Under the pieces are notes generated by a model. That model was not told the origin of the DNA. It saw only the letters and a program-made list of their open reading frames with translations, and searched no databases. A DNA stretch of 54,654 nucleotides, the filler included, from Jimgerdemannia flammicorona (taxonomy: Eukaryota), in NCBI GenBank assembly GCA_003990765.1. It is 3 parts of 3 records of this genome, joined end to end, with 100 filler letters (N's around TTAATTAATTAA, not from the genome) between each part and the next. Parts side by side here need not be neighbours in the genome. Positions count along the whole stretch, not along the records: positions 36,505 to 54,654 come from RBNJ01002286.1; 2 more parts are not named here. The stretch is one strand, 5' to 3'. Position numbers and translations under genes: made by a program. Positions 10,859 to 48,027 of this stretch are shown piece after piece (within the stretch, counting starts at the first letter, position 1; every line of letters begins with the position of its first letter).

Positions 10859-10889
10859 ATTGAAGGAATGTTGAACTAACTACCCCAAC

Positions 10890-12802: not shown

Positions 12803-12887
12803 GTTGCTAGTCGTCTGACACCAAAAATGTTGTAAAAAGTGTTGTCTGAGTCTTGTGTCGCCTGAATGATACTGGTGAAAGATGTGA

Positions 12888-24090: not shown

Positions 24091-25345
24091 CCGGCCTTAG
24101 CCTGATCTCTACCATCTTCCCAAATTACTCTACCCTACTAGGTCTAATGTCTCTAATGTCTCTCTTCTTCTTCTGAACTAGAATATCTACTCTGCTCTTC
24201 TATATAGCCACATCCCCCTCATTCTCTCATCTAGTTTAAAATATTTAAGTCCTCATCATATGTACATATCTCATATCCTGAAGGAAGAACAGATCAGCAT
24301 CCAGTCTCCTCATCTAGCAGGAAAAGTTCTGATGCCTCACTACTTCTTATAATCTATTGACATTTAGAGAAAAATTCTAGTTATACTATTTATATTAAAT
24401 ATTGTTTAAAGAAAAACCATCTGCTTTACAAATCTATGCTCACTATATCACCAGCTACATCTAAGTTCCTTTCAGTCTCAATTTTACATATCTTTCTCTC
24501 CCTACCAAGTATCTAGAGCCTCTATATGTATCTCTAGATCATCCTCTCCATCTCACATCTCTATGGAAGATCTGTATTCCTCACATTGTATCTGCCATTT
24601 TGCCAACCCTTCCTCAGGCCCCATAGATAAGCTATATAGTTATTCACAATAGTCAGTAGTGCTATCTCTCTATTGATATCTATCTTATACTTTCCTGTCT
24701 CTAGTAGAGCTGCTATCAATTTATATCAGAGCTTTTGTAATACTTCCTCTCTCTATAAGATAGTACTCTAGTATATCTTGCTAATAACATAAAAATCAAC
24801 TCCTTCCAACTCATCAGATGCAATATTTGTTAGTGCCTTCACAACTATTTCTCATCTTCAATAGTCTACTTTACCCCTGGGGCTACCTCCTGCCCTCTAC
24901 TCCCTGACATCTAACAGCATTTGTCCTCACTGATCTATCTCAGTCCTCCTTTAGCATATTCTTTAGCTCTTCAGTCTCTCTCTCCCCTATAAGGACCTCA
25001 TACCAAACTTGAGCCCTCTCTACCATTACCTTATCCTCTGCCACCTTACTTCACTTCTGAACTCTACTCTTTTCCAGAGCCTCCTCCTAGCTATTATCTT
25101 CTCTTCTGCTCAGATATTAGCCTATGAACCAACTCTCTCAGTATTATTTACTCTCTCCAAACTACTGCCAAACTTATCTACAAATTCTTATATTATTGCT
25201 TTTCTTAAGTCCTCTTCCAGTTACCAAATATAGTTGCACCCATTTGCCATTAATAATCTCTATAACTTTCTTAGTCTCAAACTCCTTTCAGGTCAGCTGT
25301 CTTTCTCTCTACTACTTCAGTCAGATCCTTTAATATCTCTATTAA
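24091..25345 (-). mobile_element. Older LINE copy, segment 1 (ORF1 C-terminal half and EN start)
   Basis: ADLFFLQDMRY at ~24270-24298; continues at 28185-29225. Confidence 0.7.

Positions 25346-28147: not shown

Positions 28148-28184
<37 letters not shown>
25346..28184 (+). mobile_element. 5'-truncated LINE (RT to 3' end) with (TA)n tail, inserted into the older minus-strand copy
   Basis: KNWHPIMLLDMDRK, LYTLSLE and KVGAFADDIVV motifs. Ends agtctaagagactata plus (ta)n. The host ORF1 sequence resumes in register after the tail. Confidence 0.85.
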
Positions 28185-28186
<2 letters not shown>

Positions 28187-29225
28187 AATTCTCTTTCTCC
28201 CCAGGCATCCTTTTTACTCTTAAGACCTTGTATTCTATCAGGTCCCACTTTAGCATTACTGGTCAGTTCTTCTCTTTCTCAGTATTCTCCTTTTCTATCA
28301 GCATCACCCTGATATTAACATTCTATATCCTGAACTCTATACCCTGTCAGACCAAGAAACTGACATCTACAATATCTCTATACTTTCTGATAGCATTAAC
28401 AACCAACCTCCTGGCCTTCTCTTTCTTTACTGTTAGCACAATAGCCTTCACTGGCTAAACTATCTGAGAGTTCTAGTATAAGCATTAAGCTATAGAGATT
28501 ACTATCTCCCTGACTATCACTCCTTTCTCCAATTCTCTCAGCATTAAATCCTCCTTCTCAAAGTCTACCTCCACTCTCTCCAGCCTCTTCAGAAACTTCA
28601 CTGATACTTCTCTCTTCACCTTTTGGGTCAGAAGCCTCAGAACCATTTTTGTATAACTACTAAGCCCCAGAAGTTCATATTGACTGTGAATTTAAATATC
28701 AATTTCTTGAGTAATGATAACACCACCAGGCCCACTATATCATCAGCTAAGTCTGCAGACCACATATCTCTCACTGTCTTAACCCTTTGTTAGCCATCAC
28801 ATCTGGATTTTTTTCCAGATTAGTAGATATTCCTCTATCAGGAGTCCCCCTCTCTCTCCCAGCTGCTACTCCCACAGCCCTTCCACTACTACTACTCTTA
28901 GCAGCCCCTCTCAGCCCTATAGTCCTCACTCTAACCTTGACCTTATCAGTGAAGCTTAATCTCCCAGTCTCTAATCTACCAGTGCCTTGTCTCCCATAAT
29001 TGTCAACCCCACATTCATCTGAATAAGAGTCCTACAGATTTTCCCCCAATTCATGGCTCCCCTTTACATACTATCATCCAAATACACCAGGGTCAAAAGT
29101 CTAGTACACTCATTTAATTGCTCATTAATTGCTTTGTTACTATCATCTTTTCTCTAAAAACAGTATTGAAAGTTTTGCCAGAAGTTTGTATAATCAGAAT
29201 AATACTAGAGAAATGTCTGCTTCTT
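28185..29225 (-). mobile_element. Older LINE copy, segment 2 (5' UTR and ORF1 N-terminal half)
   Basis: Homologous to 11800-12880 (NLEKNPDV, LLKK, FLKRLE). Confidence 0.75.
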
Positions 29226-29229
29226 ATAC

Positions 29230-32217
29230 TTCAATATCTTTCTACTTGATAAGTCTTCATTGTGGGCTTCCTGGATTACAGACATTGGGCCCAAGATTAT
29301 TACTTAAAGAGAGGGGGGTTTTACTATTAGAGATCAGTAACAAAGGCTGAAGTCTGATACTCAGTACTTTTGTAGAGAAGCTGAAATATTCAGAAGTCCT
29401 CAGTAGAGACAATATATGAGGTTGGCCTCACATAGATTGAAAAGGCTCTTGAAGGAGTAGGCCAGTCTACTGTAGGTTAAGAAAGTGGAGAACTGCTGAG
29501 TTCAGTATCCCAGGATAGAGGTAAAGCAACTCTAATTATTTCTGAAAGCAGAAGAAGGTGAATATGTGTAGGATATAGTGGCCAGGCTGAGATGGCAAGG
29601 TCTGGAGAAAGAGGATAGGTGACAAAGGTTCTGTTATGACTTCTTAGGGTCAGGAGAGTGAGGTAGTGCTGAAATAGTATAGATGAGAGTATGGAGTTGA
29701 TGGTAGAGACTTAGGATATCTTGGATCAGCTGAGTAAGTAGTAGAGAATACTGTAAAGTGAGGAGAAAGGTGGGGCAGATGTATCAGACATTGAGCAGTA
29801 TCTGGAAGACTGGTACCCAAGTTCAGTAGAGGGGCTGGGGGGCTGGCAGAGTTGGTTCAGAGGGATAAGATTCTTAAGGTCTTGGTGGAGACTAGTCTAG
29901 AGACATCACTAAAAGAGGATTAACTGCCCTGGAATTTCTGAAGATAGATGGCAAGAGTAGAGATAGGTTAGAGAGATATGATACATATGTGTGATCAGGT
30001 TATTGATTCAGAGAGATGGATAGGTGAACAGAAACTGGGTCTGGTGGCTCTGCTATTTAAGAATAAGGGTAGGAGAGAAGAGTAGAAGAATTGAAGACCA
30101 ATAATACTTCTAGATATAAATTGTAAGCTTATTATAAAGAACATTATCACCCAGTTACAGGGGGTGGCTCATAGAGGGCTGAGAGAGGAATAAAGGTGCC
30201 ATGTTGGAGGCTGCCTAATTTAGAATAGAATAGTATTAGTCTATAATATCATTGAAGGAACTGAGGCTATAAGAGTATATAGTAGACTGGTTTTTCTAGA
30301 CCAGAAGAGGGTGTATGATAGGGTATAGAGAGTGTGGTTGGATAAGGTACTAGAATATATTTGAGTTTCTTTAGGCTTTTGATTGTCTCTTATCAGTCTA
30401 TTGGAGGGGAGTCAGGTGGTAATCTATGTTAATAAATATAGGTAGGCATTATTTTCTCTAGGAAAAAGAGTGCTTCAGAGTGACTCATTGTTACCTATTC
30501 TTTATGCTCTCTCCTTGGAGCCCTTGCTGAACAGAATTAGGTGCAAGGTGAGAGAACTGATAATTCACAATATAAATTTAGAAGATGGCAGCCTTTGCAG
30601 ATTGTATGGTAGTTGGGCTGGACTTGGTAGGGAATGTAACTATCATAATAGAGCTGTAAAATAGTATGAAGGGTACTCAGAAGCCAAGCTCAACTGAAAT
30701 AAGTATGAGACTCTGGCTTTGTAGTAGATTGATTAGTGGGGACATAATCAGATCAATCATCTTAGTCAGAGAAGTAGTCCAGTATCAGGGAATTTATTTC
30801 TTGATATATAGCTCCTTATTGTTCAGACAGTAGAGAAAGCAAAAGCTAACAGAGTGGAAAAATACTCTCCTGGGCTGGAGAGGATGACATATCTTATTGA
30901 TAGGATGAGTGATGATACTGAATATATACTGGATGCCTAAGCTGTAATATCTGAGATATTATCTGAACTTTTCTATATAAGTAATAAAGAGACTTCAGAA
31001 GATGATCAGGTCTTAGATCTGGATCAGAAGGTGTGATAAGGTGGACTGAGATATTTTAATACTACTGGTGGTCAGGAGAGGACTTAGTCTGGTAGACTTC
31101 TCAAAATATTTGTTTTTTTTAAAAGTGTGGTAGTTGAGGAGGACTAGGGAGCTGAGAGGAAGAAATTAGATATCTCTTATACAAAAGATATAGGAGGCAT
31201 AATTCTCCTCCAGTGGAATATATGGTGACTTGCTTTTCTTAGTTATATAAGAGGGGAGCCATCATATGAGATATATGAGTTTCTTGTAGAGAGTGATGAA
31301 TAGGGTCCATTGGATAAGAATTTACTGATATAAAGAGAAAGGTGAGATAGTTTGAAGACCAGAGATGTGGAATTGCCTTCTATTGAGAGACTCTACAGTA
31401 GTTGACTTTAGGGTAGAGAATGGAGTAAAGTACTAATATAGAAAGAGAGGAGACTGGTGGCCAGAGAGTTGATAAGAGATAGATATTAGTAAGTTATAGA
31501 ACTGGGCAGATATCTGATCAAAGAGTATAATAGTATTGAGATAACTGTCATCTAAGTACTGTGTGATATAGTGGAAGCTGCTGTGGTAGAATATACTGCC
31601 AAACTTTATGTCAGGGCATTTGATTGGAGGAGGGTTGTTTGACTGTGAGGAGTGCTTTGATATAGGGCAGGAGAGTGGAGTAGTATAGACCCCTAAACAC
31701 TAGCTAAGCAATTGTAAGATACTGTCAGATTTCGGATTGGTAATTGAGAGCTAACCTGGAATATAGCCTGCAGAGGTAGAGGGGGTGGAAATGGGGGGGT
31801 CCTTTGGTTATATCTGGTGTGAGAGATTGGAAATAAATAACTTTTGATAAAGTGAGCCCTTACTGTTTGAGTTAAACTAACTAGATATTTACTATATATC
31901 TTTGAGAGTAGTCAGTAATTATTGTTAGAGATTAAGATAGTATAGTAGGAGTGATTTCTTTTAGAATTGTTAAATAGATGGTAGGTTGGGTGGAGACATA
32001 TTGGAGTCTTTACCAAGAGTTAGTAGAAAGGATATACATATATGAAGAGTAGAGTGAGGATTCAGATTTTTAGAGAGATATTTCATGAGAAAGTAGAGAG
32101 TAGATCCCCCAGGAGAATTAGATAAGAGTGAGGCATCTAATTATTAGAGATATATATATTGATAATAAATAATAGAGTCTATATAACTATATAAAAAAAA
32201 TTAAAAAAAAAAAAAAA
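29230..32217 (+). mobile_element. Decayed 5'-truncated LINE (ORF2) with poly(A) tail
   Basis: FLDQKRVYDRV and LYALSLEPLL motifs, C-terminal DCEECFDIGQE, A-tail at ~32192-32217. Confidence 0.8.
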
Positions 32218-35200
32218 TACTATCAATATGACAATATACAATAGTTCTGATAGACATACCAAATTAGATGTCCTAGAGCCTTTGGTTGCAGTTTGTCAGA
32301 AGGGGCTACAGTATAGAGATGGGTTTTTTCTGTAGTAAGAGTGGGCTGATCAGGTCTGATAAGAGTTTGCTATAGGATATAGGTGGTAGAGAACAGAGGC
32401 TTATGAGCTTTCCTGACAAAGTGATGGCTGGAAGTTGGGCTGAGAGTGCTTAGAGAAGCAAGTCTAGAGAGAGGGAAATAGTGAGCACTGTGAGAACTGG
32501 AGAGTTGGTACCTATCAGAGTGAGTGTAGGGGCTGATAGAGTAGTTAACTGAGGGTAGAGGTATATCTGCTGATGATCGTATGATATAGAACCTGGAAAA
32601 AAATTCAGATATAACTGCTAATAGCAGGGCTGAGTAAATGGAGTATGCTGGGAAGGTAGATCAGATATATAGATAATATAATAGGACTGGTAGTAACCCC
32701 ATTACTCAAGAAATCTATCTCTAAATTTGCTATTACTTTATATAATAGTAATGACTAAGATAGTCTTGGCCTTAATTATAAAGCAAATAACTGGTATAGC
32801 TTCAGTAAAGTTCATACAGAAGTTAGAGAGAGTTGAGGTGAATTATAAAGAGATAGGACTATTGGAGGAGGTCTTGAGGACTGGGTTAGTGGTTTGAGAA
32901 GTAGTGGTACTAATGGCTTAGTATTTGAGATGAGACCCTAGGATGGTTCACCTCCTAGTAAAAGGGGTATTCACTGTAACAGTAGTTGAGATAAGGAGGA
33001 GAGTGGAGGGGATTATAGTAGAGATGATATAGTAGATATTGGATTTCAGGTGTGAGAGGAGATCTTATTCAGAACTAGAGATGTGGTTGTCTGAATCCAG
33101 AAGAGATCTTTAGGAAGTCTCAAGTCAGGTCTTTAGTATTTATGCAAGATACTTTTATTTATAAGGTAGTAGGGTGAAGGAGAGTGAGGAGGAGGAGGAT
33201 GATCTGTTGAAGACTCTAGAGAAACTCAGTGGGATGATAGAGTGAAGAGCAGTAATATAGAGGACTTATAAAAGACTTGAAAGTTGTAAATAGAAAGAGG
33301 ATTCATATAGATAATATAATGTGAGAGAAGATACAAAGATAGAAGAGGCAGAGACGTTTATTGATAGATATGAAGAAGAGACCAGCAACTGGATTGAAGG
33401 GGATTTAGATAAGTTGAAGACCACTGATTGAGCTGGAGATAGAGCAGGAAAGAGGATTGTAAGTGTGGCAGAGAACAGAATTACAAGGAGTCAGCAACTC
33501 TATGTTGATGGTATGCTCAAGATTTAAGAAGAGAAAGAGGTATATAAGATAAGAGATATATAGTACTTGAGAGAGAAAGGGTCAGGAGAATGTAGAGATA
33601 AGAGGCATATAGAGGGTCTAGTTTGGGATATCTGATATGATGAAGATTGGGTAGGTGGTCAGAGTTGAGAAGGATGAGGTACAGAATATTCTATGGGAAA
33701 GATAATATATGTCTGCTAGACTGAGATAGATATCACCATCCTGAAGGAGAGGAGGCCTACAATTCTGGGGAGAAAAATTATTAGTAATTTGCACTAGATG
33801 AGTACCATAATAAATAAGTTGAATGCAGAGAAGCTAAGGAAGGTAGACTAATATATTATTATATAGAATATTGAGCAAGAGCATTGAGAGAAGATTAAGT
33901 AATTGAGAAATAGATAGTAGAGATTTTGATAGTATTTTAGGAGAAGAAAGGATATGAGATAGATATTATAAGAGATACTCAACTAGCAGTATCTGCTAGA
34001 GAGCATACTATATTCTAGTAGTGGTAGTATTATTAATTACAGCTCTAATAGCTCCTTTCTCTACTATCATACTCACAAGATTGGTAGATAATCTTCTGAG
34101 TCTCTTTTCCCTTATTCTACCTGCTCTATCTCAGATTGATTTGCTGAACCTACAAGGGCATAGTGGGAGGAAGACAATGGTAATGAGTTGTCCCTCTATT
34201 AGTGCTTTTTCTACTATTTCTGGTACCTCTGAATATATCTAGTATATACTCATTTTGGAATAGTGTCTTCTTCCTTTTGCTGTTATTAATAAGATATCAT
34301 CTGGATATATCATAAGATATATAGAGTATCAGCTGACCTTAGGTCTAAAGTACCAGTATAGTTACCTATAGGTTCTTGGTGTCTATGGTGGAGCTCTCTG
34401 AGCTTTGGTGAGCTTCTCAGCAAATATAGTACTGGTATAGGTAACTGCTTTTCAGGTAAGAGTAGGATGAGAGGAGAGATGGCCATTACAGATAAGAGTA
34501 AGAGTTACTATGGTAAATCAGTGAGGTATTAGACTGCAGGCAGTCATTAGGGTTGAGATGAGTACTATATCAGTAGGGCCTTCTAATTGGTACAGAGTGG
34601 TTAAGTGATAGGTATCACTCTTAACTACTTTTGATAATATATAGAATTGGACCCTGGTTGTTGGAGTAGTCAGAGGGCCCAAGGCTATCCAGATCAGATA
34701 TCTCAGCTATATTCAACTGAAATCAGAATCTGAGATAACAATATAATCAAGACCTGTAGACTTGAGTAGTAGAGTATTGGGGGTCTTCTCTCATCTTATA
34801 TATGAGTTCTCTACTTATCTTACTTGAGAGAACTAGGTCCTATTTACTGTTCTGTACTTTGATGGAGATTTTTCTTTATCTGTTACTTCACTTGAGATAG
34901 AAGGAGCTATATAAATCAGCTTTGATATAGCCTTATACATATGTTAGGATTTGAATATATATCTTTAATCATGGGCATATAGTTGTTTACTCTTTAGTGA
35001 TAGAAAGATCATGGTGTATAGATTAAAGTATGTGCTTTTATAAGATCTACTATACCTAATATAATTGAGCTGCTGAATAATAACTAGTTTAAATTAATGG
35101 AAGTATAGTACTTGTGTGGTGGTGGGGGAGGGTTTTGGCCTATATTATATAGATTCTCTTCTAATAAAAATCCACAGGACTTTGAGTCTAAAAAAAAAAA

Positions 35201-36140
35201 AAAAAAAAAAAAATTAATTATAGCTCTGATAGATAGCATATGAGAAATATAAGAAGAAAATAAAGAATAAAAATGATGAGACTTTTACTGAAATTCTGGC
35301 AGGATTAAATACTAAGGAGATTAAGGAGGAGGAGGCAATTGTCAAATATTGTCTAGACTTAACTTAAGAGGAGGTAAGTATGGAATTATAATAAAATTAT
35401 ACTACAATATACTAATATTTTCTCACTGAATATAAATTAACTGAGTGGCTCTGGAGAGTATCAAAACATTATTACTTAGCTTAAGGGTTTGGATGTGAAT
35501 CTTTTTTTATTATAGGATGTATATTGTAAGAAAGAGTTAAATAGACAGAAGTAGACAAGAGAATGGGGTGGTATGACTATTTCTTGAGACAAGATTGGGA
35601 TTCAGATATTGGGTGGCAAAGACAAATTTTGGATGATCAGAGATAGGAATAATCACTTGGTTTAGAGGGAGTATATTAGGCCAGTGTGGAAGCTAGTAGT
35701 AGTCAGCTCTTGTTATTATACAGTAATTAGGAGAAACTGAGTAGAGTAGATAGGGAGACTTTATAAGTATGATATGCTTGCTGAGACTAGTGTAGATATA
35801 TATACTTAGTGGAGACTTTAATATAGTAAGAATTGTACTCTTGAATAGAATAGGTAGAGAGAGATATATTGAAAGCTATAGTTGCAGTCTAGATATCTGG
35901 TAAGAAGTAGAGTATTTTAGTTATTTGATAAATACTGACAGAATAGTATAGAGAGATCAGATAGTCTATACCCATTAGATGAATAGACTTGGGACAAGAA
36001 TTGACTAGATGTTTTCTATCAACTATTGGGAAATAAATATTGAGCAACTTTGGAGATAAGGTAGTGCCCAAGGTCTGATTATTGGAGACTATTAGACTAT
36101 GGCTAGTTTGAAGAGAGTGAAGATGGATCTGAATATTGGC
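32218..36140 (+). mobile_element. Decayed LINE 5' half (ORF1 plus EN), interrupted by SINE-like copy 2
   Basis: ORF1 motifs (AFG, NLEKNSDI, PLLKK), then EN remnants from ~35390 (LFLL*DV, GDFN, IDEI, SD). Confidence 0.75.
34052..35213 (+). mobile_element. SINE-like retroposon, copy 2, complete with A24 tail and 19-bp TSD
   Basis: TSD ttaattacagctctaatag (34033-34051) / ttaattatagctctgatag (35214-35232). aataaa lies about 27 nt before the tail. Confidence 0.9.
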
Positions 36141-36404: not shown

Positions 36405-36504
36405 NNNNNNNNNNNNNNNNNNNNNNNNNNNNNNNNNNNNNNNNNNNNTTAATTAATTAANNNNNNNNNNNNNNNNNNNNNNNNNNNNNNNNNNNNNNNN
36501 NNNN
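36405..36504. other. Assembly gap with artificial six-frame stop linker
   Basis: N44-TTAATTAATTAA-N44. Confidence 0.95.

Positions 36505-36542
<38 letters not shown>
36505..36542 (+). repeat. Poly(A) tract, probably the tail of a retroposon hidden in the gap
   Basis: A38 directly abuts gypsy integrase sequence. Confidence 0.6.
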
Positions 36543-36544
<2 letters not shown>

Positions 36545-38123
36545 GCACAGAATTTGTCAATAGATTCTATGAGATAATATATCAGAAATACAAGATTTAG
36601 CATATAAAGACCACTGTATACCACTCTCAAGGAAATGGACAGATAGAGAGAATCAATAAGACCCTCAAGAACATCTTGGTGAAGATCTCAGGCATATATG
36701 ACAATTGGGATAACTATCTCCCAACTGCCCTCTCTGTTCTATGAGATATATAGTCACAGAGTACACACTTTACCCCAAGAGAACTGCTCTTCAGAGAAGA
36801 AGATTCTGATGTAATCTCAGTTATAAATCTAGATCTAACTTGGAGACAGGTTGACTCAGAAATCTGGAGACTACACCAAATCAGGAAGAAGGCTGAAGAT
36901 TACAACATCAAGTCACAAATACTGATAAGGAAGAATGCAGAAAAGAATTACAAGACCCTAGAACTCATCCAAATCAGAGAAAAAGTCCTACTATATCAAA
37001 ATATGGTAGAAGCCTCATGGTCACAAAAACTGGAGCCCAAATAGAAAGGACCCTTTTATATGCAAGATATCAAGAGAATTACCTTCTGGCTTAGAAAACT
37101 CTCAGGGACTATACTGCCTACTATGGTATATAGGAACAGACTCAAGAAGTACTATGAACCTATATAAGAGAAGTAAAATGTGATGACTGCCCATGAGGTT
37201 CTAGTCTGTGAATTATAACAGCATGTCCCATGACCAGTAGGCAATCTGTCTAGACCATTCTCTAAGGGATATAATATCAGCAACTACTCATTTATGAGAC
37301 TTTCAAAGCCAGAGTAGTTTGAACTGTCAACTGATTGATCAAGATCAGAATCAGGCCCTTGCTCTTTATGAAGGAAGTGACCCTTCACTATCATGCCAAA
37401 ATATATAGAGAAGATACCAGCCCATAAATACCACTTTTCAACCTCCTGAAAATTAGTAAATTTTTCAGACTAGACCAATAAATAAGGATATTTAAGAGAA
37501 GATCCTTATTCAGGAGGAAGATGTAATGGTGACCTCAGAATGATGACATCAGCACAGGAGACAGTCTTTCCTTACAAGTTACTAGATTGGAGTACAGAAA
37601 GATTATACTGCATAACTCACTTAGACTATAAGATGAGCAATGATGACCAACCATGAGTTATTGTGATCACAAGACAGACATCTTGAGGAATATAAAAGAA
37701 GGATCAAGAAACTATAGTAGTAGTAATCCAAACAAGGCTCACAGAAATAGTTCTAAAGACTTACTACAAACAAAATATCTGCTACTTGCCAAACCTCAAG
37801 GTCCAGGAACCACCAAGACCCCTCAGTCTAGGAAAGGATATTCTAAGACATCTGGAGAGCCATGAGGACTCACATAAGAAGGACTCCTAGCCTTAACCTG
37901 AATACTGGTGATCCTTATCATTATATTCTCTATCACAACAAAATGGAAACAAGGATCACCATTGCTACCAAATACCTCTAGATATAACAGGAGTATGAAA
38001 TAAGAAACCTCCTCTGCTAGAAATTTCCTCAGGCCAGTCACCAAGAAATACAAGATGTCACTCTCATGGATATATATATATGAAATAAGAATAGCCAAGA
38101 AGATTTATCAGGTCTTTAGATAT
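36543..38123 (+). mobile_element. Older family A gypsy copy: integrase C-terminus, ORF3 region, PPT and first part of the 3' LTR (LTR starts 37522)
   Basis: Collinear with 44435-46010. PPT caggaggaaga is followed by tgtaatggtgacc. Confidence 0.9.
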
Positions 38124-38365
38124 TGTAATGGTGACCCCAGAATGATGACATCAGTATAGGAGACAGTCTTTCTTTGCAAGCCACCAGATCAGAGCACAAG
38201 AAGATCATACAGCATATGAGATGAGCAATGATGATCAACTGTAAGTCATTGTGACCACAGTACAAGCATCCTGAAGAATATAAAAGAAGGATCAAGGAAC
38301 TATAGTAGCAGCAATCAACAAGACCCACCAATCCCAAAATAGCTCAAAGACTCACTACAAAAAAA

Positions 38366-39178
38366 ATACCTACTGCCCATCAAACCTCAAGGTCAAGGAA
38401 CCACCAAGGCACCTTGGTTGAAGAAAGAATGTTCCAAGACATCAGAAGAGCCATGAGGACCCACTCAGGAAGGACTCCTAGTGTCAACCTGGGTACTGGT
38501 AACCCCTATTACTATATTCTCTACTATCGCAAAATGGAAACAAGGATCATTATTACCACTGAATGCCTCCAAATGTGGCAGGAGTATGAAATAGAAAACC
38601 TCCTCTGCCAGGAGTTCCCACAGGCCAGCCCTCAAGAGCTACAAGATGCCACTCCTATGGACATATATGAGGCAAGAATGGCTAAGAAGATCCATCAGAT
38701 ATTCAGGCATATACCATGGTTAATCCCCAACTTGGAGTATATTAGAGTCTCAGATTTCAGAGATCTGACATCCTGCTGTATCAATGCACTAGAAGCCAGG
38801 GTGGCTACAGAAGCCCAGTCTACTATCACTCTCAATAGTGATGAAGTAGAAGACTTCTGGTATTCCATCCTTCAGGACAACCCAGACCAATTCCTGCAAG
38901 GATTGATCTCAGTATTCCAAGGCCCAAGCATCCAGGTTAGACCTACCCAAGACCCCACATTTGTTCTCTATTTTGTAGAAGAGAACCTTATAGACTAGAG
39001 AGCTCCAGATCTCCTTATTCCCACCACTGCCAAATGTGATGATGTCATCAGCAATGACATCATTCTGCATGACCTATGTGACCTTGATGAAATGTTCGTG
39101 GACCTTATCTCCTTTGAAGATATCCTGACCTCTGACAAAAAGGATGAAGCCTCTATAGTCCTGAACATTCTGCTCTAA
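38366..39178 (+). pseudogene. LTR-internal gene of family A (~270 aa, unknown function)
   Basis: Open over 38366-38995. ATA at 38366 is ATG in the 3' LTR (45665), and TAG at 38996 is TGG in the 3' LTR. The terminal CTGCTCTAA is conserved in all three LTR copies. Confidence 0.8.
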
Positions 39179-39195
39179 GTCCCTTATTATACTAA

Positions 39196-39335
39196 ATAAT
39201 ACCAGCACCAGTATTCTGAGGTAACACTGAATAATGCTAGCACTGACATTCTGAGGTAACACTGAATAATACCAGCACCAGCATTCTGAGGTAACACTGA
39301 ATAATGCTAGCACCAGCATTTTGATGTGACACCAA
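39196..39335 (+). repeat. Four 35-bp tandem repeats in the LTR (also at ~46486-46625)
   Basis: Unit ataataccagcaccagcattctgaggtaacactga, starting at 39196, 39231, 39266 and 39301. Confidence 0.9.
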
Positions 39336-39715
39336 ATTATACCAGCATCTTGAACCTGTACAACCATCAGGATCAACCCTGGAACTTAGCAGTTTTTTCT
39401 GTCCTGGCATTTTATTATAGTTATTGGAATTTATATTTAGCTTTATATCTTAGCAACCATTAAATTATATTTTGTATAAATACCCCTCTTATTCCCTCTA
39501 AAATAAAGTCAGTTCTGGTTCACTTATATACAATCTCTTGTAAGCAATCTAAGAGATAATAAGACAGTTTAAAGATAAGAAGTTTGAGGACTATAAGATC
39601 TTGGGAAGGCACTCCAATAAGAACTTGCTTATAACAAACTTGAGTTAGTCTAAGAGATATATCTTGAAGAGAATCTGGTATATTTGAAGGACTCAGCAAC
39701 CACTATGTGACAACT

Positions 39716-39733
39716 TGGTGTCCATTGGCTGGT
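39716..39733 (+). promoter_or_regulatory. Probable primer-binding site
   Basis: tggtgtccattggctggt begins 3 nt after the LTR terminal CA. The cognate tRNA was not identified. Confidence 0.6.
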
Positions 39734-39789
39734 GATTCAAGATGAATCTCTCACTTTCAAGCTGAAAAACAAACAACCCCTACAACAAC

Positions 39790-41600
39790 TACCCTGACTA
39801 CAAGAGTTACTCCTGCAAGAATTCAAGACAAGATAGAAATTCATCTCCCCACATTCTATGGATATACTACTAAAGAGTCAATCCTGACCTTCATTGAAGA
39901 CTTTGAACAATTCGCTGCTATACAAGCCCTTAGTGTGGATGCATAATTGGCCCTTGTACTAGTCAGCCTCAGAGGACATGCCAGAGACAAGTTCAATGTA
40001 GCCACTATTGCTGATGCTGGTGCAGCCAAACTTACCAATATGAAGGCCTTTCTCAGAACAACATACTATACTGAAGAGATCAAGCAAGCTCTCAAGAATC
40101 AACTCAATACTATCTGCCAGGGACTTAGTGAAGATCCCAACTCATTCTATACCCAAATCTGCCACCAGATTGTCTTGGCTGGCTATGATGACTGCCTCAA
40201 GGAACAAATAGTGGATTCAACCTTCCTCAAAGAAGTTCACTCTGAAATTGCCCTAGTAATCCAGTCTATCCCAGCTATACTGACCCTTGATCAGAAAGTG
40301 GTCTTTGTACAGAGATATTGGACTGCCAGATACCCTGCTGAACACTCAATGGAGAAAATAACTGGCATCAAGATGGAGCCATCAAAACTAACTAATATTA
40401 TACCTGCTATAGTTGTGAACAGACAACCAATCCCACCTATCCCCAAGACAGCCAAAGCTGACCCAGTGGAGGAACTTGCCAAGTAGTTTACTGAGATGAC
40501 TGCACACCTTAGTAATGTTGTTAGAGAAGTCCGAAGTATCAACAGGAGACTAGTGCAGAGATTTGCAGCTACTATAGAAGAATGCAATATCACATGCTTC
40601 AGATGTGGAGAAGAAGGCCACTATGCAAAGAATTGCATGACTGAAACAAGACACAAAGCTCAACCAAGCAATACTAGCAGAACCAGAGAATAAACCAATG
40701 TAGTAGTCATCAAGGAGATTGGCAACACTGATGATGAAGAATACTACAAGGAGCTTGAATTCTACCCTGCTACTGAAGGTACCAGAACCTGGTCCAAGCC
40801 CTATGACAAGAAGAGCAACAGCAAGCCAGTTGGAAGACCAAAGAAGACCCCAGCTGTCACTATTCTAAGCAAGACTCAACCTGAGGAGATTGACCAAGAT
40901 ATGGAGTTAGATGAAGCTGTCTGCCAAATTATTGAAGGCACTACTCCAGTCTTAGGAGAAAGTGAAAGCAAGAAGAAACAGAAGCTGCACAAGACCAAGA
41001 TCCACCAGTATGATATTTACAAAGATCTCAAGGAACAGAAGATCAATGCTACTTTTGGACAGCTAGCTGAAGTCTCTGCCTTTGGACAGCAGTTGAGAGT
41101 AGGACTTGCAACTACTGCCAAGAATTAAGAGTACAAGATTGTAGAAGCTCACAATGTACAGGAAGAATCTGAGAACTTAGGTGAAGAATCCAAAGACCAG
41201 CGCAAGACATCAGCCTATACCCCATGTCAGATTGAAGACTATATCTTTGATACCATTATTGATACTAGTGCTGGAGGATGTCTCATGAGCAAGAAGGCAA
41301 TTGACTGCCTAGACTGAGAAATTGAAGAGTCCACTAAGATGGTCTATATCACAGCAGACAGTACATAAGCTACCCCCCTTGGCAAAATCCAAGAAGTCCC
41401 CATCAAGATAAGAGGAGCTACTATCCCAGTAGACATAATTGTTACAAGCACCACCAACTATGATATCCTCATTGGCAATCAATGGTTTCACAAGGCCAAG
41501 GCCATCATTGACCTCAATGCCCAGAAGATGCAGATCAACTATAGAGGAAGAAAGGTACAAGTCTCTATCAATGTCTACAAAGAAGTCCTACCAGATATGG
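39790..41600 (+). pseudogene. gag: gag (capsid-like, CCHC knuckle) and aspartic protease
   Basis: LPTFYG...FIEDFE; CFRCGEEGHYAKNC at ~40595-40636; IIDTSAGG and DILIGNQW in the same frame. Confidence 0.85.
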
Positions 41601-41934
41601 AGAAAGGAGATGAAGAAGACACAGAGGTCTTCATGCACTTGGTGAATAAGAACAAGAACAAGAACAAGAACAAGACACCTAAGCTTACAGATGAGCAGTA
41701 GTATAACAAGATCATTGATGGCTATGCCCCTCAAGGAAGATGCCCCCATAGTACTAGGATGTACTGCTCTGAACACCTGAATGACTGCTGGTCCTATATC
41801 AGAGAAGTCAGGAAAATCTGCCAACAGAAATATGAGTGAGAAGTCACCAAAGCAAAAAGGAAAGCTGAAGAAGATGACCAGCCCCCAGAGCTTCAAGCTG
41901 ACAGTGATGATGAGGAGAAACAAGAATCAGACAT

Positions 41935-42355
41935 CACCCTCAAGGTCAAGAAGTTTTACCCCAAAGTCAAGATCCCAGAATACAAGACCGAGGAGCCATA
42001 GGAATGGACCTTGTCAGCATTCAAGATGCTACCCTCGAACCACAGACCACCACTCTACTTGGCACTGGAATTGGAGTCAAGCTGCTAGAGAACTATGCCA
42101 GAATTATCAAGACCAGGAGCAGTCTGGCCAAAAGTGAAATCTCAGTTGAAGGAGGAGTAATTGACCCTGATTACACTGGTGAGATCTTCCTCATAGTCAG
42201 GAATCACAACCCCACCACCCCATTCGAAGTCAAGAAGCATGACAGAATTGGCTAGATGCTGATCTATGAAATCAAGAAGCCCAAGATCATAGAAGCCATC
42301 GAACTCATCAAGACCAAGAGAGGAGAACAAGGCTTTGAATCTACTGGAAGAGGAG
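41935..42355 (+). pseudogene. dut: dUTPase domain between protease and RT
   Basis: GMDL, TRSSLA, GGVIDPDYTGEI, DRIG(Q) and RGEQGFESTG correspond to the five dUTPase motifs. Confidence 0.93.
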
Positions 42356-42519
42356 CCTATGCTGCCACCAAGATTACTGAACTTGAGCACAAGAAAGACA
42401 AGGACTGGAACAAGCACACATATACCATCAGAGAAAACTTTCCTCTAGAAGAACAACTTCTCAAGATCTTGCATCAGAATGAAGGAGTACTTGCTACAGA
42501 CTTCAGAGATATCCACAAT

Positions 42520-45067
42520 CAAGAACCCAAGTACTACCATGAAGTTGACACTAGTGATATCAAGCCCATCTACCAGAAAGCCAGACCCATACCACCTGCC
42601 TACAGAGAGTGACTGTGAGCAGAACTCAAGGAAATGGAAGAAGCCAGAATCATCAAGCAAGCTATCAGCCCCTGGACCTCACCTATTGTCCTTGTCCTGA
42701 AGAAAGGAAGCAAATCTGGAGAGTTTGCACCAAGACTCTACATTGACTACAGGAAGCTCAATACCATCACCAAGAAGGATAGGCAGCCCTTACCAAATAT
42801 TCAAGAAATCCTTACTACTCTCAGAAGTGAAGCCAAATACTACACCACCTTGGATCTGTTCTCAAGCTTCCATCAGATTGGTCTCACTCAAGATACCAGT
42901 GAGAAATCAGCCTTCATCACACCTAATGCTACCTATATCTATCTGTGGATACCATTTGGAATGTGCAATACCCCAGCAAGTTTTCAGTGAATGATGAACA
43001 GAGTCTTCAGTAATGAGAGTGGAAAATGGCTCTTTGTCTATGTTGATAATGTGATCATCTTCAGCAACACTACACAGGAATATATCAATCACATACAGCT
43101 AGCCCTCAAGAAGCTCAAAGAGCATGGCCTCTACATTAAGTTCAAGAAATGCAAGTTTGTAGCTCAAGAAATTGCCTACCTAGGACACCTCATCAACCAG
43201 ACCGGAATCCACACAGACCCCATGAAGATCAAGGCTATTGCAGCCTACCCAAGACCCAGAACAACCACAGAAGTCCACGCCTTCTTTGGACTGGCCAGCT
43301 ACTACAGAAGATTCATCAAAGGATACTTCAACATTGCAGCACCTATCTATGAGCTACTGAAGAAGGAAACTAAATTTAAATGAACCAAGAAGTGCTAAGA
43401 AACCTTCAATGAACTCAAGACCAGGTTGACCCAAGCACCTATCCTTAGAAAACCAGATTGAAATCTAGAATTCATCCTGCAGACAGATGTAAGTGCTATA
43501 GGACTTGGAGCAGTCCTAGCTCAGAAGAAAGATGGACATGAATATGTCATCTCCTATGTAAGCCAAGGTACTTATAGAGCAGAATAAAACTATGAGTCAT
43601 ACAAGCTTAAATACTTAGCAGTAGTCTGGGCAGTAGATAAGTTCCACTACTACCTAGCTGGGAAACACTTCACTATTCAAACAGACCATTCTGCTCTTGC
43701 CTGGCTATTCCATACTATGAACCCCAAAGGAATATATACCAGATGGATCTACAGGCTGCAAGAGTATGACTGTACTATCAAGCACCACTCAGGAAGAACC
43801 AATATCAATACTGATGCACTCTTAAGAATACTCTGAAATACTCCCATCAAGACTATTCAACATGAATAAGGAGCTATACTATGGATTAATCAGCTACCTT
43901 GGGCAGCAGAAGATGCCCAACCACCTTGAACCCTGGACAATCACTATCATCAACTAGACTTGGAAACAGTTTGAACTAGACAACACTATACTCAGAAAAG
44001 GAGGAAAGCTAGTAATACCTGAATACAAGAAGTATCAAGTAATGAAGGAAGTATATGAGCAAGGACACCTAGGAGGAACCAACATATATGATAAGACAAG
44101 AAGAACCATGTGGTGGCTCAAGATGGAAGAAGACCTGTGCCAATTTGTCAAAGGGTATGATAAGTACCAAAAACAGAAACAAGATCAGTAAGACCAGGTA
44201 CCCAGTTTATCAAGAATTGAGTCTATCTCCTTCCACTACATTGCAATGAATATCATTGGGCCACTACCAGTAACACTATTAGGAAACTGCTATATTATAG
44301 TTATCATAGACCTCTTTACCAAATGGATAGAAGCAGGAGTATTACAAGAAGCCAATGCCCTCTCTATAGCTGACTTCCTGCACCAAGAAATTATCTGCTA
44401 CTACAAGACACTGAAGCAAATCACAACAGACCATGGTATGGAATTTGTCAATAGATTCCATGAGATAATGTATTAGAAATACAAGATCCAGCATATCAAG
44501 ACCACTGTATACCACCCTCAAGAAAATGGACAGATAGAGAGAATCAACAAGACCCTCAAGAACATCCTGGTGAAGATCTCAGAGACATATGAGAATTGGG
44601 ATAACCATCTCTCAACCACCCTCTCTGTCCTATGAGAAATATGATCACAGAGCACACACTTCACTCCAAGAGAGCTGCTCTTCAGAGAAGAAGATTCTGA
44701 TGGAACCTCAGCCACAAATCTAGACCTAACTTGGAGACAGGTTGATGCAGAAATCTCGGGGCTACACCAAATCAGAAAGAAGGCTGAAGATTACATCATC
44801 AAGTCACAAGCACTGATAAGGAACAATGTGGAAAAGAATCACAAGACCCTAGAACCCATCTGAATTGGAGAAAAAGTCCTACTGTATCAAAATATGGTAG
44901 AAGTCTCATAGTTGCAAAAACTGGAGCCCAAATGGAAAGGACCCTTTTACATACAAGATATCAAGGGAACTACCTTCTGGCTTAGAAAAATCTCAGGGAC
45001 CATACTGCTTATCACAGTACATAGGAACAGACTCAAGAAGTACCATGAACCTATACAAGAGAAGTAA
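42520..45067 (+). pseudogene. pol: pol: RT - RNase H - integrase (no chromodomain seen)
   Basis: SPWTSPIVLV, IDYRKLN, VYVDNVII, GLASYYRRFI, QTDVSAIGLGAVL, GHLG, NIIGPLP, TTDHGMEF, YHPQENGQIER and KWKGPF motifs. Confidence 0.95.
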
Positions 45068-45120
45068 AATATGATGACCACCCATGAGGTTCTAGTCTGT
45101 GAATCATAACAGCATGTCCC

Positions 45121-45444
45121 ATGACCAGCAGGCTATCTGTCTGAACCATTCTCTAAGAGATACAGCACCAGCAACTACTCATCTGTGAGACTTTCGAAGC
45201 CAGAGGAGTTTGAACCATCAACTGATTGGTCAAGATCAGAATCAGGCCCTTGCTCTATATGAAGGGAGCAACTCTTCACCATCATGCCAAAATACAAAGA
45301 GAATATGCCAGCTCATAAATACCACTTTTTGACCCCTTGCCAGAGGTTATGAGATCAGTAAATTTTTCAGAACTGGACCAATGAATAAGGATGCTCAAGA
45401 AGATTCTTATTCAGGAAAAAGATGTAACGGTGACCCCAGAATGA
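45121..45444 (+). pseudogene. Putative extra ORF3 between pol and the 3' LTR, reading through the PPT
   Basis: 108-codon frame ending 22 nt inside the LTR, with stops revertible to CGA/CAA. The core (IYETF.AR...RL.KIRIRPLL.MK) is also present in the older copy from 37230. Confidence 0.5.
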
Positions 45445-47001
45445 TGACATCAGTACAGGAGACAGTCTTTCCTTACAAGCCACCAGATTAGAGCACAAGA
45501 AGATCATATAGCATACAAGATCAGCAATGATAACCAACTGTGAGTCATTGCAACTACAGTATAAGCATTCTGAGAAATATAAAAGAAAGATCAAGGAACC
45601 ACAGTAGCAGCAACCAATAAGACCCACCAATCCCAAAATAGCTCAAAGACTCACTACAAACAAAATGCCTGCTACCTGCCAAACCTCAAGGTCAAGAAAC
45701 CACTAAGGCACCTCAGTTGAAGAAAGGATGTTCCAAGACATCAGAAGAGCCATGAGGACCCACTCAGAAAGGACTCCTAGTATCAACCTGGGTACTGGTG
45801 ACCTCTATCACTATATCCTCTACTGCCATGAAATGGAAACAAGGATCACCATTGCCACTGAATGCCTCCAAATGTGGTAGGAGTATGAAATAGGAAACCT
45901 TCTCTGCCAGGAGTTCCCACAGGCCAGCCCTCAAGAGCTACAAGATGCTACTCCCATGGATATATGTGAGGCAAGAACAGCTAAGAAGATCCATCAGATC
46001 TTCAGGCATGTATCATGGTCAATCCCTAACTTGGAGTATGTTAGAGTCTCAGATTTCAGAGATCTGTCATCTCACCATATCAATGCACTAGAAGCCAGGG
46101 TGGCTACAGAAGCCCAGTCCACTATCACTCTCAATAGTGATGAAGTAGAAGACTTCTGACATCCCATCCTTCAGAACAACTCAGACCAATTCCTGCAAGG
46201 ATTGATCTCAGTATTCCAAGGCCCAAGCATCCAGGTTAGACCTACCCAAGACCTCACATTTGTTCTCTATTTTGTAGAAAAGAATCTCATAGACTGGAGA
46301 GCTTTGTTCCTGCCACTGCTGAACATGATGACATCATCAGCAATGACATTATCTCGTGTGACCTACATGACCTTGACAAAACATTTGTAGACTTTATCTC
46401 CTTCAAAGATATCCTGACCTCTAACAACAAGGATGAAGCCCCCATAGTCCTGAACATTCTGCTCTAAGTCCCTTGTTATACTAAATAATACCAGCACCGG
46501 CATTCTGAGGTAACACTGAATAATGCCAGCACCAGCATTCTGAGGTAACACTGAATAATGCCAGCACCAGTATTCTGAGGTAACACTGAATAATGCTAGT
46601 ACTGGTATTTTGATGTGACACCAAATTATACTAGCATCTTGAACCTGTACAATCATCAGTACTGACTCTGAAACTTAGCAGTTTTTCCTGTCCTGGCATT
46701 TTATTATAGTTATTGGAATTTATATTTAGCTTTATATCTAAGCAACTATTGAATTATATTTTGTATAAATACCCCTCTTATTCTCTCTGAAATAAAGTCA
46801 GTTCTAGTTTACTTATATACAATCCCTAGCAAGTAATCTAAGAGATAACAAGACAGTTTAAAGATAAGAAGTTTGAGGACTATAAGACCTTGGAAAAGTA
46901 CTCCAATAAGAACTTGCTTATAACAAACTTGAGTTAGTCTAAGAGATATACCTTGAAGAGAATCTGGCATATTTGAAGGACTCAGCGACTACTACATAAC
47001 A
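45423..47001 (+). repeat. 3' LTR of family A element (1579 bp)
   Basis: tgtaacggtg...cataaca, preceded by the decayed PPT caggaaaaaga. Contains the second copy of the LTR gene from ATG 45665. Confidence 0.93.
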
Positions 47002-47005
47002 ATAT

Positions 47006-48027
47006 ATACTATGGTTAATCTCCAACTTGGAGTACACTAGGATCTCAGACTTCAAGAAACTGTCAGCCTGCCATACCAATGCACTAGAGGCCATAGTAGT
47101 CACAGAAGCCCAGTCTACTATTACCCTCAATAGTGATGAGGTAGGAACCCTATTCTTGAGGACAATTCTGATCAATTCCTACAAGAATTGATCTCAGCAT
47201 TCCAAGGCCCCAGCATCTAGATTAGATGTCTCCAAGACCCCACATTTGTCCCTTATTTTGTGGAAGAGAACCTCATATATTGGAGAGCCCCAGACCTCCT
47301 TGCTTTCTCTACTGCCAAATGAGATAATGTTACCTGCAATGATATCATTAGTGATGACATTATCCCACAAGATATGTGTGAAGTATACAAAATACATGAT
47401 ATATACAAAACAGATGAAATGTTCATGGACTTCATCTCCTTTGAAGTCATCCTGTCTCTGATCTCTGGCCTTGATAATGGTGACAAAGATGAAGCCCCCA
47501 TAGTTTTGAACTTTCTGCTCTAAGTTCTTAGTAATACTGAATTCTACCAGCATCCTTTTTCTGTATAACTGTTATTCTTCTGGTATTCTGATCTTGTATA
47601 ACTCAGAAATTCTTCTGGTATCCTTTTTCTATATCACTAAAATTCTACCGGCATTCTGAACTTGTGCAACTATTTATACAGATACTTGAACTTATACTTA
47701 TAACTGTAGTTTTCTGTATTCCAGTATTTATTTGGTATTGGAATTTATATTTAGCTTTATAACTTTGCAACCATTGAGTTACATTTTGTATAAATACCCC
47801 TCTTATTTCCTTTGAAATAAAGTCAGTTCTAGTTCACTTACTCTCAATTCTATACAAGCAATCTAAGAAATAACAAGATAGTTTAAAGATAAGAAGTTTG
47901 AGGACTATAAGACCTTGGGAAGGCACTCTAATAAGAACTTGCTTATAACAAACTTATGGTTAGTCTAAGAGATACATTTTGAAGAAAATCTGTTATATTT
48001 GAAGGACTCAGTGACCACTATATGACA
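47006..48027 (+). repeat. Remainder of the 3' LTR of the older family A copy
   Basis: Joins 37522-38123 exactly once the ATAT TSD is removed; ends tatgaca. Confidence 0.9.

Follow-up and report, generated by a model that had tools for sequence, protein, structure and literature searches.

A conserved open reading frame, predicted to be a gene, within the long terminal repeats of a Ty3/gypsy element of Jimgerdemannia flammicorona

The long terminal repeats (LTRs) of a Ty3/gypsy element in Jimgerdemannia flammicorona carry a frame of about 270 codons in their U3 part, and sequence comparison indicates that this frame is a genuine protein-coding gene, which purifying selection keeps intact in active relatives of the element. 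U3-borne accessory genes are a kind otherwise known in a few retroviruses, and the present case is in Metaviridae. The window, that is, the whole stretch of DNA analyzed (54,654 nucleotides, filler included, from GenBank assembly GCA_003990765.1), contains three copies of the LTR, and all three copies of the open reading frame (ORF) in it are pseudogenes. The copies belong to a younger element and to an older relative into which it is nested, with the following parts.

36527-37521, + strand: integrase tail and purine tract of the older element, whose upstream end is cut by an assembly gap
37522-38123, + strand: left half of the older, related 3' LTR, split by the younger element within its own copy of the ORF
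38120-38123 and 47002-47005, no strand assigned: 4-bp target-site duplication ATAT and its second copy, read directly in the sequence
38124-39712, + strand: 5' LTR of the younger Ty3/gypsy element, 1589 bp, TG...CA
39713-45422, + strand: internal region of the younger element, with gag, protease, dUTPase, RT, RNase H, and integrase, now split among several frames
about 45413-45422, + strand: purine tract just 5' of the 3' LTR, read in the sequence
45423-47001, + strand: 3' LTR of the younger Ty3/gypsy element, 1579 bp, TG...CA
47006-48027, + strand: right half of the older LTR, with the decayed remainder of the ORF, repeat motifs, TATAAA at 47789, and AATAAA at 47816

The younger element is a dead Ty3/gypsy element (Metaviridae) with the order PR-dUTPase-RT-RNaseH-INT. 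Pfam matches to RVP_2, dUTPase, RVT_1, RT_RNaseH, and rve were found in this order on successive ORFs between 41369 and 44476, gag was without a Pfam match, and a PBS-like TGG stretch directly follows the 5' LTR. The 5' and 3' LTRs were identical in 1422 of 1579 aligned columns, with 157 differences plus one 10-bp indel. When one ATAT is left out, the halves of the older LTR line up collinearly along the young one, and positions 36527-36826 of the older element are 86% identical to positions 44418-44717 of the younger one. The third LTR copy in the window is the 3' LTR of the older element and not a solo LTR. The nearest named relatives of the RT come from plants, a pseudoscorpion, and Rhizopus and share no more than 47% identity with it; the two closest relatives are metagenome proteins with 88% and 62% identity. 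In the window, Rfam gave no matches and a tRNA search found no genes.

Two copies of the ORF lie in the LTRs of the younger element.

38366-39178, + strand: LTR-borne ORF, 5' LTR copy; 271 triplets (270 aa), TAA at 39176-39178
45665-46467, + strand: LTR-borne ORF, 3' LTR copy; start codon present, TAA at 46465-46467

The TAA end is common to all three LTRs, being found at 39176-39178, at 46465-46467, and, in the older LTR, at 47520-47522. The original prediction held that the two LTRs of the younger element are damaged at different places, and this proved correct: in the 5' LTR copy, the start position (38366-38368) is not a start codon and an in-frame stop lies at 38996-38998, whereas the 3' LTR copy is interrupted by three stops (45704-45706, 45878-45880, and 46157-46159) and has lost 10 bp near 46305. 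Between the LTRs of the pair, differences in the ORF were distributed over the three codon positions as 21/15/21, and the decay of the ORF since insertion looks neutral by this comparison. The LTR pair differs by 149 transitions and 8 transversions, and the observed/expected ratio of CpG is 0.04. The stop at 45878 is private to the 3' LTR copy. In related assembled contigs from the sequencing runs X1, X2, and X4, a letter other than that of the stop was found in 295.1 of 301, 70.9 of 70.9, and 15.9 of 15.9 depth units, respectively. In run X11, whose nature as RNA is only a guess and whose pieces are mostly less than 90% alike, only 3.67 of 66.7 depth units differ from the stop letter. None of 13 listed runs is recorded as RNA, and the assembled contigs of these four display neither starts nor ends of RNA. 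A tblastn search with the protein matched the window in the three LTR copies only and nowhere in the internal region, and the 5' LTR ORF showed 68.6% identity over 274 columns to an intact 271-aa database protein (P0003).

The ORF is surrounded by putative control signals, which are listed below with their counterparts.

38279-38285, + strand: first TATA box, TATAAAA; counterparts at 45578 (3' LTR), 37691 (older LTR), and position 4 (contig L001)
39191-39347, + strand: array of 35-bp repeats, 4.5 copies, between the ORF stop and the second TATA box
46480-46613, + strand: counterpart of the repeat array in the 3' LTR
39475-39482, + strand: second TATA box; the sole AATAAA in the LTR is at 39502-39507

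All the landmarks named in the original prediction are present, namely, the TATA box at 38279, an A-rich leader, a frame of about 270 codons, its TAA, the 35-bp repeats, the TATA box at 39475, and AATAAA. Each LTR has the order TATAAA, ATG-free leader, frame of about 270 codons, TAA, 35-bp repeats, second TATAAA, and AATAAA, so that the ORF (38366-39178) lies wholly within the LTR, 5' of the second TATA box (39475) and AATAAA (39502). The same order (TATA, leader, ORF, spacer, TATA, AATAAA, and a U5-like end) was found in L001, a divergent metagenome contig of 1345 bp with an intact frame of 323 codons. Among the homologues, an LTR context is known for the window family and for L001 only, and L001 was recovered as a lone contig, not at the two ends of a complete element. 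In all four LTR copies (three in the window and L001), TATAAA occurs exactly twice and AATAAA once, the leader from the first TATA box to the start codon contains no ATG (in 80, 80, 88, and 58 nt), the 16-mer TGTATAAATACCCCTC around the second TATA box is the same, and the second TATA box is spaced from AATAAA by 27, 27, 27, and 26 nt. The core motif of the repeats, CYRGYATTCTGA, occurs 13 times in the window, with a mean of 3.05 in shuffled sequences, none of 100 shuffles reaching 13; 10 of the 13 occurrences are within the spacers of the three LTRs. This motif is absent from the spacer of L001, which fits co-evolution of the protein with its putative sites and ordinary enhancer turnover equally well. 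We also observed that the 80-nt leader of the 5' LTR is A-rich, and that the 155 nt upstream of the first TATA box of this LTR contain seven ATG.

We compared the frame with shuffled sequences and with L001. Of 2000 dinucleotide-preserving shuffles, one attained the open run of the 5' LTR (229 codons); that of L001 (343 codons) was attained in 0 of 2000. Over 195 aligned codons, the 5' LTR ORF and L001 gave a pN of 0.238, a pS of 0.636, and a dN/dS of 0.20, a value that is only approximate because dS (1.4) is saturated; pN/pS was 0.37. The two shifted frames gave dN/dS values of 0.87 and 1.75, with 9 to 12 stops per sequence. Differences from L001 by codon position were 66/36/85. In addition, the 570-nt core of the ORF was 68% identical to L001 without any gap, whereas the ORF tail and the noncoding segments showed 42 to 67% identity with 2 to 110 gap columns, and open frames were intact in clades with just 27 to 33% protein identity. 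The claim that the LTR encodes a protein of about 270 aa is thus borne out by the shuffles, by a dN/dS that is about 0.2 against L001 and not near 1, and by the intact homologues. These comparisons indicate that the frame is a genuine gene and that purifying selection maintains it in active relatives.

Six proteins among 148 candidates were members of the family, and a profile search gave 11 family proteins. In a HMMER search of 1.84 billion proteins, five representatives of 138 to 342 aa were found at E ≤ 0.001, none of them fused to another part. Six sequences of 175 to 342 aa begin with MP(A/P), namely, P0003, P0010, P0011, P0013 (from L001), P0014, and P0015, and intact homologues of 214 to 342 aa occur in at least four clades. 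A metagenome scan with P0002 found one locus, which is L001. None of the 281 pattern matches from a metagenome scan with the family alignment, the 35 matches in IMG/VR, and the 34 matches in GTDB genome contigs was confirmed. Matches to the 16-mer at 91 and 20 loci were rejected as relatives and attributed to chance; in these 111 loci, tblastn gave nothing and blastn a single 21-nt match.

The encoded protein is a soluble orphan made up of a basic N terminus, a helical core, and a strongly acidic tail. The N-terminal part has a pI of 7.9 to 11.5, and its arginine-rich stretch is not conserved in distant clades. The core comprises 142 aa in four of six members. The tail has a net charge of −15 to −25 in the five members that have one; it is variable in length and has a short conserved hydrophobic motif at its end. 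No membrane-type segment was found in five members (19-residue Kyte-Doolittle maxima of 0.47 to 1.07). The model of the core is helical (pLDDT 68, pTM 0.64), and AlphaFold modeled the full-length protein poorly (pLDDT 49). Pfam gave no family at its cut-off for the window protein or any of the 11 members; its sole match, ATG5_HBR, was rejected because its E-value of 0.088 to 0.15 fell short of the cut-off. No match was found among the sequences of solved structures at E ≤ 10, in the PDB by Foldseek with the poor full-length model at E ≤ 0.001, or in BFVD by a fold search with the core model at E ≤ 0.001. Among 48,161 chains compared with the core model by VIA-align, none reached Z ≥ 5, the highest Z being 4.4, and in the ESM Atlas all feature scores were at most 0.83 and all structure TM scores by query at most 0.33. 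No DNA-binding domain was detected by Pfam, solved-structure sequences, or VIA-align. A kinship with the gag of the element was also rejected, hhalign against its two gag ORFs giving a probability of 0.1%. Within these searches, the protein has no known relative (Pfam family, solved-structure sequence, or fold) and is unrelated to the gag pieces of the element. In keeping with the original prediction, it is not a fragment of a longer host or transposable-element protein, to the extent that HMMER (1.84 billion) can reveal one.

On the basis of its anatomy, each LTR may be a self-contained transcription unit, for and against which we see about equal chances. The first TATA box would start an mRNA of about 1.2 kb, in which the ORF start would be the first AUG and which would end at the single AATAAA of the LTR. 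The second TATA box would be the genomic promoter, with transcripts starting approximately at AATAAA, 26 to 27 nt downstream; because AATAAA would lie at about this start site, the genomic RNA would be free of it at its 5' end. The gene would have come to be part of the LTR through its place downstream of the polypurine tract, from where reverse transcription copies it to both ends of the element. Its location also means that every insertion duplicates it, as had been proposed. As to function, our best guess, with the odds somewhat against it, is that the protein regulates the LTRs of its own element family; the assignment to this class is a guess from charge layout and position only. Such a protein would either switch on the second TATA box as the genomic promoter or relieve it of silencing, with the repeats that separate this promoter from the ORF as the probable target.

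It is extremely improbable that there is no gene at all and that the frame is open by chance or conserved purely by cis-acting DNA or RNA signals in U3. Such a view would suit the broken state of all window copies, the lack of a known domain, and the full-length pLDDT of 49, but it conflicts with the shuffle test, the codon-position pattern, the dN/dS of 0.20 versus 0.87 and 1.75 in the shifted frames, the 570 nt without a gap next to gap-rich flanks, and the intact frames in clades 27 to 33% identical. Gene fragments are known within retroelements, and the LTR might have captured a piece of a host gene, as in gene-transducing plant retrotransposons. We regard this origin as very improbable: the HMMER search of 1.84 billion representatives found only five relatives (138-342 aa), all of one build, and no longer parent protein, and a start, a stop, and a leader of its own accompany the frame and are kept across clades.

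The two remaining alternatives accept a real gene. In one of them, which appears unlikely, there is no two-promoter cassette; the ORF would be translated after splicing of the genomic RNA or from a subgenomic form of it, or the first TATA box would be the genomic promoter, with an R of about 1.2 kb and the ORF as first cistron upstream of gag. Every genomic RNA includes the U3 of the 3' LTR, retroviral 3' accessory genes are read from spliced or subgenomic RNA, and both TATA motifs are equally conserved (four of four copies each). By contrast, the leader after the first TATA box is ATG-free in all four copies, as for a dedicated mRNA, the fixed 26 to 27 nt from the second TATA box to AATAAA in all four has the look of a U3/R border, and 1.2 kb would be an unusual length for R. 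An upstream cistron has parallels in plant gypsy elements such as Retrosat2, for which extra ORFs upstream of gag are described (PMC3485330). In the other alternative, which we judge rather unlikely, the product is not an LTR regulator; it would instead assist replication or the particle as a cofactor, oppose a host defence (RNA silencing, DNA methylation, or deaminases), or repress copy number in a dose-dependent way. This would agree with the absence of a detected DNA-binding domain and with the heavy C-to-T type mutation of the element family (the transition excess and CpG depletion given above), under which a counter-defence would pay, and a gene dose that grows with LTR number would suit a copy-number sensor. 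Nothing specific speaks against a nonregulator product; however, a regulator is in slightly better accord with the acidic tail and its short hydrophobic motifs, the basic N terminus, and the site beside the repeats and promoter.

The explanation that we consider best as a whole, combining an LTR-borne gene, a two-promoter cassette, and a regulator, has in our estimation slightly less than an even chance of being right. In its furthest form, which we think unlikely to hold, the LTR would be an autonomous gene, with its own promoter and terminator upstream of the genomic promoter, whose orphan product acts in trans on the repeats of its own family, switching on or de-silencing the genomic promoter; every LTR, including solo LTRs that recombination leaves behind, would feed a pool of the factor shared by the family, and protein and motif would co-evolve by clade.

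Mouse mammary tumor virus (MMTV) sag is an ORF of about 300 codons in an LTR of about 1.3 to 1.6 kb, present twice per provirus, with a short R and a poly(A) signal at the end of U3. The present ORF likewise lies wholly in the LTR, 5' of the presumed genomic promoter and poly(A) signal. It differs from sag in belonging to Metaviridae rather than Retroviridae and in the lack of a sequence or family match (Pfam), and, unlike Sag, a membrane glycoprotein, its product has no membrane-type segment. Tas/Bel1 of foamy viruses is encoded by a 3'-end regulator gene with an internal promoter, and Tax of HTLV acts on 21-bp repeats in U3. By analogy, the LTR-borne gene may resemble these in lying at or in U3, in having a promoter separate from that of the LTR, in a putative acidic activating part of its product, and in tandem U3 repeats as likely targets. 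No homology to either was detected (Pfam; BFVD), and here the whole gene with its own TATA box is inside the LTR.

Among retrotransposons, the barley Ty1/copia element BARE has two TATA boxes in one long LTR that give distinct RNA pools (PMC3735527; PMC3485330). The present LTR contains two TATA motifs that may be promoters, but has an ORF between them, where BARE is not known to have one, and it belongs to a Ty3/gypsy element. Lineage-specific orphan ORFs beside gag-pol are described for grass Retrosat2, RIRE3, and RIRE8 (ORF0) and for bdelloid rotifers (ORF3), as is a dUTPase between PR and RT in rotifer families and a basidiomycete family (PMC3485330, PMC5408684, PMC2864245). Unlike the present ORF, ORF0 and ORF3 are internal, being upstream of gag or downstream of pol. 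VANC of Arabidopsis VANDAL transposons is described as a family-specific anti-silencing protein that targets short motifs in the noncoding repeats of its own element (PMC5735166, PMC10398659). VANDAL is a DNA transposon without homology to the present system, and a likeness of function would be a guess. A paper on the Podospora element crapaud reports U3 variation without an ORF. As the original prediction had supposed, exact-phrase searches of open-access full text found no described retrotransposon, Ty3/gypsy elements included, with an ORF in its LTR, although such searches are weak evidence of absence. Phrases for protein-coding LTRs matched MMTV papers and no retrotransposon LTR in the same kind of text.

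Retrotransposon LTRs are treated as noncoding control regions and are masked by annotation pipelines. With a conserved gene in U3, solo LTRs might be expressed as genes, the amount of a factor encoded by the transposable element would scale with LTR number, insertion dates derived from LTR divergence would rest in part on constrained sequence, and "complex" regulatory genomes would extend beyond retroviruses. Were the LTR indeed an autonomous gene, a regulatory circuit in the style of retroviruses would exist in a retrotransposon of a nonvertebrate host. As a family without a known relative, the protein is a clean target in the search for a new mode of element self-control or of resistance to silencing.

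The ORF was carried by the LTRs of a Ty3/gypsy element that is full-length but dead. Both LTRs run TG...CA, a purine tract lies directly 5' of the 3' LTR, and ATAT stands on either side of the element as a 4-bp target-site duplication (38120–38123 and 47002–47005). A Pfam search gave the order of the internal region as gag, protease (RVP_2), dUTPase, RT, RNase H, and integrase core, spread over several broken frames; the gag itself had no Pfam match. The dUTPase domain (41914–42255; E 1.2e-16) lies between the protease and RT, a position reported for a basidiomycete family (PMC2864245) and bdelloid rotifer elements (PMC5408684). In the pol frame between the protease and dUTPase, a (GAACAA)5 microsatellite (41644–41675) reads as an Asn-Lys repeat. 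The closest RT relatives of the element were metagenome proteins.

The element had been inserted into an older related LTR (37522–38123 and 47006–48027), where the target duplication falls within the ORF copy carried by that LTR, and the window therefore carries three copies; a tblastn search of the window located matches to the ORF in these three copies, all within LTRs, and nowhere else. The older LTR served as the 3' LTR of an older element. The integrase tail of that element occupies 36527–37521, and the element is cut at 36405–36543 by two N runs around a linker (TTAATTAATTAA) followed by approximately 38 A, read as an assembly gap. Remains of non-LTR retrotransposons, with weak Exo_endo_phos and RVT_1 matches, lie on the minus strand at 10244–12889 and 19600–24100; they lie in GC-rich stretches (~50% GC) whose strands are strongly skewed (GC skew to −0.49), and long ORFs overlap there on both strands.

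The LTR anatomy described in the original prediction proved exact, and the 5' LTR (38124–39712) contains the following features:
38279, first TATAAA
80 nt between the first TATA and the ORF, leader without ATG
38366 to the TAA at 39176–39178, plus strand, ORF of 271 triplets
39191–39347, array of 4.5 copies of a 35-bp repeat
39475, second TATAAA
39502, AATAAA, the only one in this LTR

The same layout recurred in the 3' LTR (45423–47001) and in the older LTR. The layout is not confined to the window: L001, a divergent metagenome contig of 1345 bp whose 323-codon frame is intact, begins at the first TATA motif and continues with an ATG-free leader, the ORF, a spacer, the second TATA, AATAAA, and a U5-like end. 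This contig is too short to show the terminal repeat of a full element; the LTR context of homologues is that seen in L001 and the window copies. The three LTR copies of the window and L001 had exactly two TATAAA and one AATAAA each, an identical 16-mer around the second TATA, a distance of 27, 27, 27, and 26 nt from this TATA to AATAAA, and ATG-free leaders of 80, 80, 88, and 58 nt. By contrast with the leader, seven ATG occur in the 5' LTR within the 155 nt that precede the first TATA. Each young LTR has four occurrences, 35 bp apart, of a 12-nt motif from the repeat array, and the older LTR has two or more; of the 13 matches in the window (3.05 expected), 10 fell within LTR spacers. The motif was missing from the L001 spacer, where other short repeats were present instead; protein-site co-evolution and ordinary enhancer turnover fit this absence equally well. 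A 103-aa open frame on the minus strand across the 35-bp repeats of both young LTRs (39074–39385 and 46363–46674) probably results from the lack of stops in these repeats.

The open run of the 5' LTR, 229 codons long, was matched in only 1 of 2000 dinucleotide-preserving shuffles. Using the 5' copy as it stands as the query, with its single stop read as X and without consensus or repair, we obtained 6 family proteins among 148 candidates in a word-indexed search; of these, P0002 (247 aa) was 75% identical over the full length, and P0003 had 271 aa. A profile search gave 11 family proteins. The family, present in soil-metagenome runs and two organisms, formed at least four clades by identity, 27–58% identical to the window copy. 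Exhaustive HMMER against 1.84 billion representatives gave five proteins at E ≤ 0.001, all of 138–342 aa, and no longer protein containing the ORF product; as far as HMMER reaches, the product is therefore not a fragment of any host or TE gene. MP(A/P) opens P0003, P0010, P0011, P0014, P0015, and the L001 product P0013, and on this evidence the frame of the 5' copy truly starts 21 codons before its first ATG and comes to 270 codons, as originally predicted.

Over the 195-codon conserved part, the window ORF and L001 gave pN 0.238, pS 0.636, and a dN/dS of 0.20, not near 1, although dS is saturated and the value approximate (pN/pS 0.37). Shifted frames of the same nucleotide alignment gave 0.87 and 1.75, with 9–12 stops per sequence. 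The differences were distributed 66/36/85 by codon position, and the 570-nt core was 68% identical with zero gaps; the acidic tail, spacer, leader, and U5 were 42–67% identical with 2–110 gap columns. The shuffles, the intact relatives, this ratio, and the gap-free core show that the LTR harbors a gene under selection, followed downstream by a conserved TATA/AATAAA pair. The original interpretation, an accessory gene with two promoters, is partly supported, in that selection acts on a genuine gene carried by the LTR; its promoters and function are putative.

The window copies have decayed. The 5' copy has lost its start and has one stop (38996–38998), and the 3' copy keeps its start but has stops at 45704, 45878, and 46157 and a 10-bp deletion near 46305, bearing out the prediction that the lesions of the two LTRs lie at different sites. 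The copy in the older LTR is more decayed, with many lesions (75–90% identical by segment). Between the young LTRs, 157 of the 1579 aligned columns are different, with one 10-bp indel in addition, and the even spread by codon position (21/15/21) is as expected of neutral decay after insertion. The stop at 45878 is private to the 3' copy: related contigs carried a different letter in 295.1 of 301 depth units in sequencing run X1, 15.9 of 15.9 (X4), and 70.9 of 70.9 (X2), the exception among the four runs being X11 (3.67 of 66.7). Transitions outnumbered transversions by 149 to 8 in the LTR pair, with only 48 of the 149 at sites compatible with former CpG; observed/expected CpG was 0.04 for the element, 0.116 for the window, and 0.007 for 24501–36000. 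The transition bias is extreme and is shared by thousands of related contigs from metagenomes; together with the loss of CpG, it points to strong cytosine deamination in the host, methylation-driven or RIP-like. Decayed P0015 and P0001 have Cys, Trp, or His where intact relatives keep Arg, substitutions that record, in the protein, the decay of CpG in CGN codons; a dN/dS that includes a decayed copy is, if anything, overestimated.

The protein has a basic N-terminal part (pI 7.9–11.5), a core of 142 aa in four of six members (140 and 150 aa in the other two), and, in five members, an acidic tail of 47–126 aa (net charge −15 to −25) in which short hydrophobic motifs and the C-terminal end are conserved. 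No membrane-type segment was seen in it. AlphaFold modeled the full-length protein poorly (pLDDT 49.4) and the core alone as an all-helical domain (pLDDT 68.4, pTM 0.64). No known relative was detected in Pfam, solved-structure sequences, the ESM Atlas, the PDB and BFVD by Foldseek, or 48,161 chains by VIA-align (best Z 4.4). A comparison with the element's own gag found the two unrelated.

MMTV sag is the closest in layout, its ORF reportedly lying inside the U3 of a long LTR, but, unlike sag, the window protein lacks a membrane anchor, and the two have no sequence match. In supposed logic, the closest would be foamy-virus Tas, which has its own internal promoter, and HTLV Tax, which acts on its own U3 repeats. 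VANC of VANDAL transposons (PMC5735166 and PMC10398659) would be likewise close. Two TATA boxes in one LTR are described for BARE (PMC3735527 and PMC3485330). No ORF lies between those of BARE, whereas the window LTR has one. Orphan extra ORFs of gypsy elements, ORF0 upstream of gag in Retrosat2 (PMC3485330) and bdelloid ORF3 (PMC5408684), lie in the internal region, in contrast to the ORF inside the LTR here. Phrase matching in open-access text found no description of a retrotransposon with an ORF in its LTR.

The position of the ORF downstream of the polypurine tract would account for its place inside the LTR, since reverse transcription, following established retroelement replication, would copy it to both ends. 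Transcripts from the first TATA would contain AATAAA and end within the same LTR, yielding an mRNA of ~1.2 kb whose first AUG would be the ORF start. Since transcription commonly starts ~30 nt beyond a TATA box, RNAs initiated from the second one would begin at or just past AATAAA and so would not carry that signal at their 5' ends, an arrangement typical of elements whose R is short. From sequence features, we regard this putative two-transcript model as having an even chance of being right. More tentatively, the basic, helical, and acidic build of the protein and the 12-nt motif array directly 5' of the putative second promoter suggest a possible regulator, specific to the family, that would act back on its own LTR; a role in counter-defence or copy number is about as likely.
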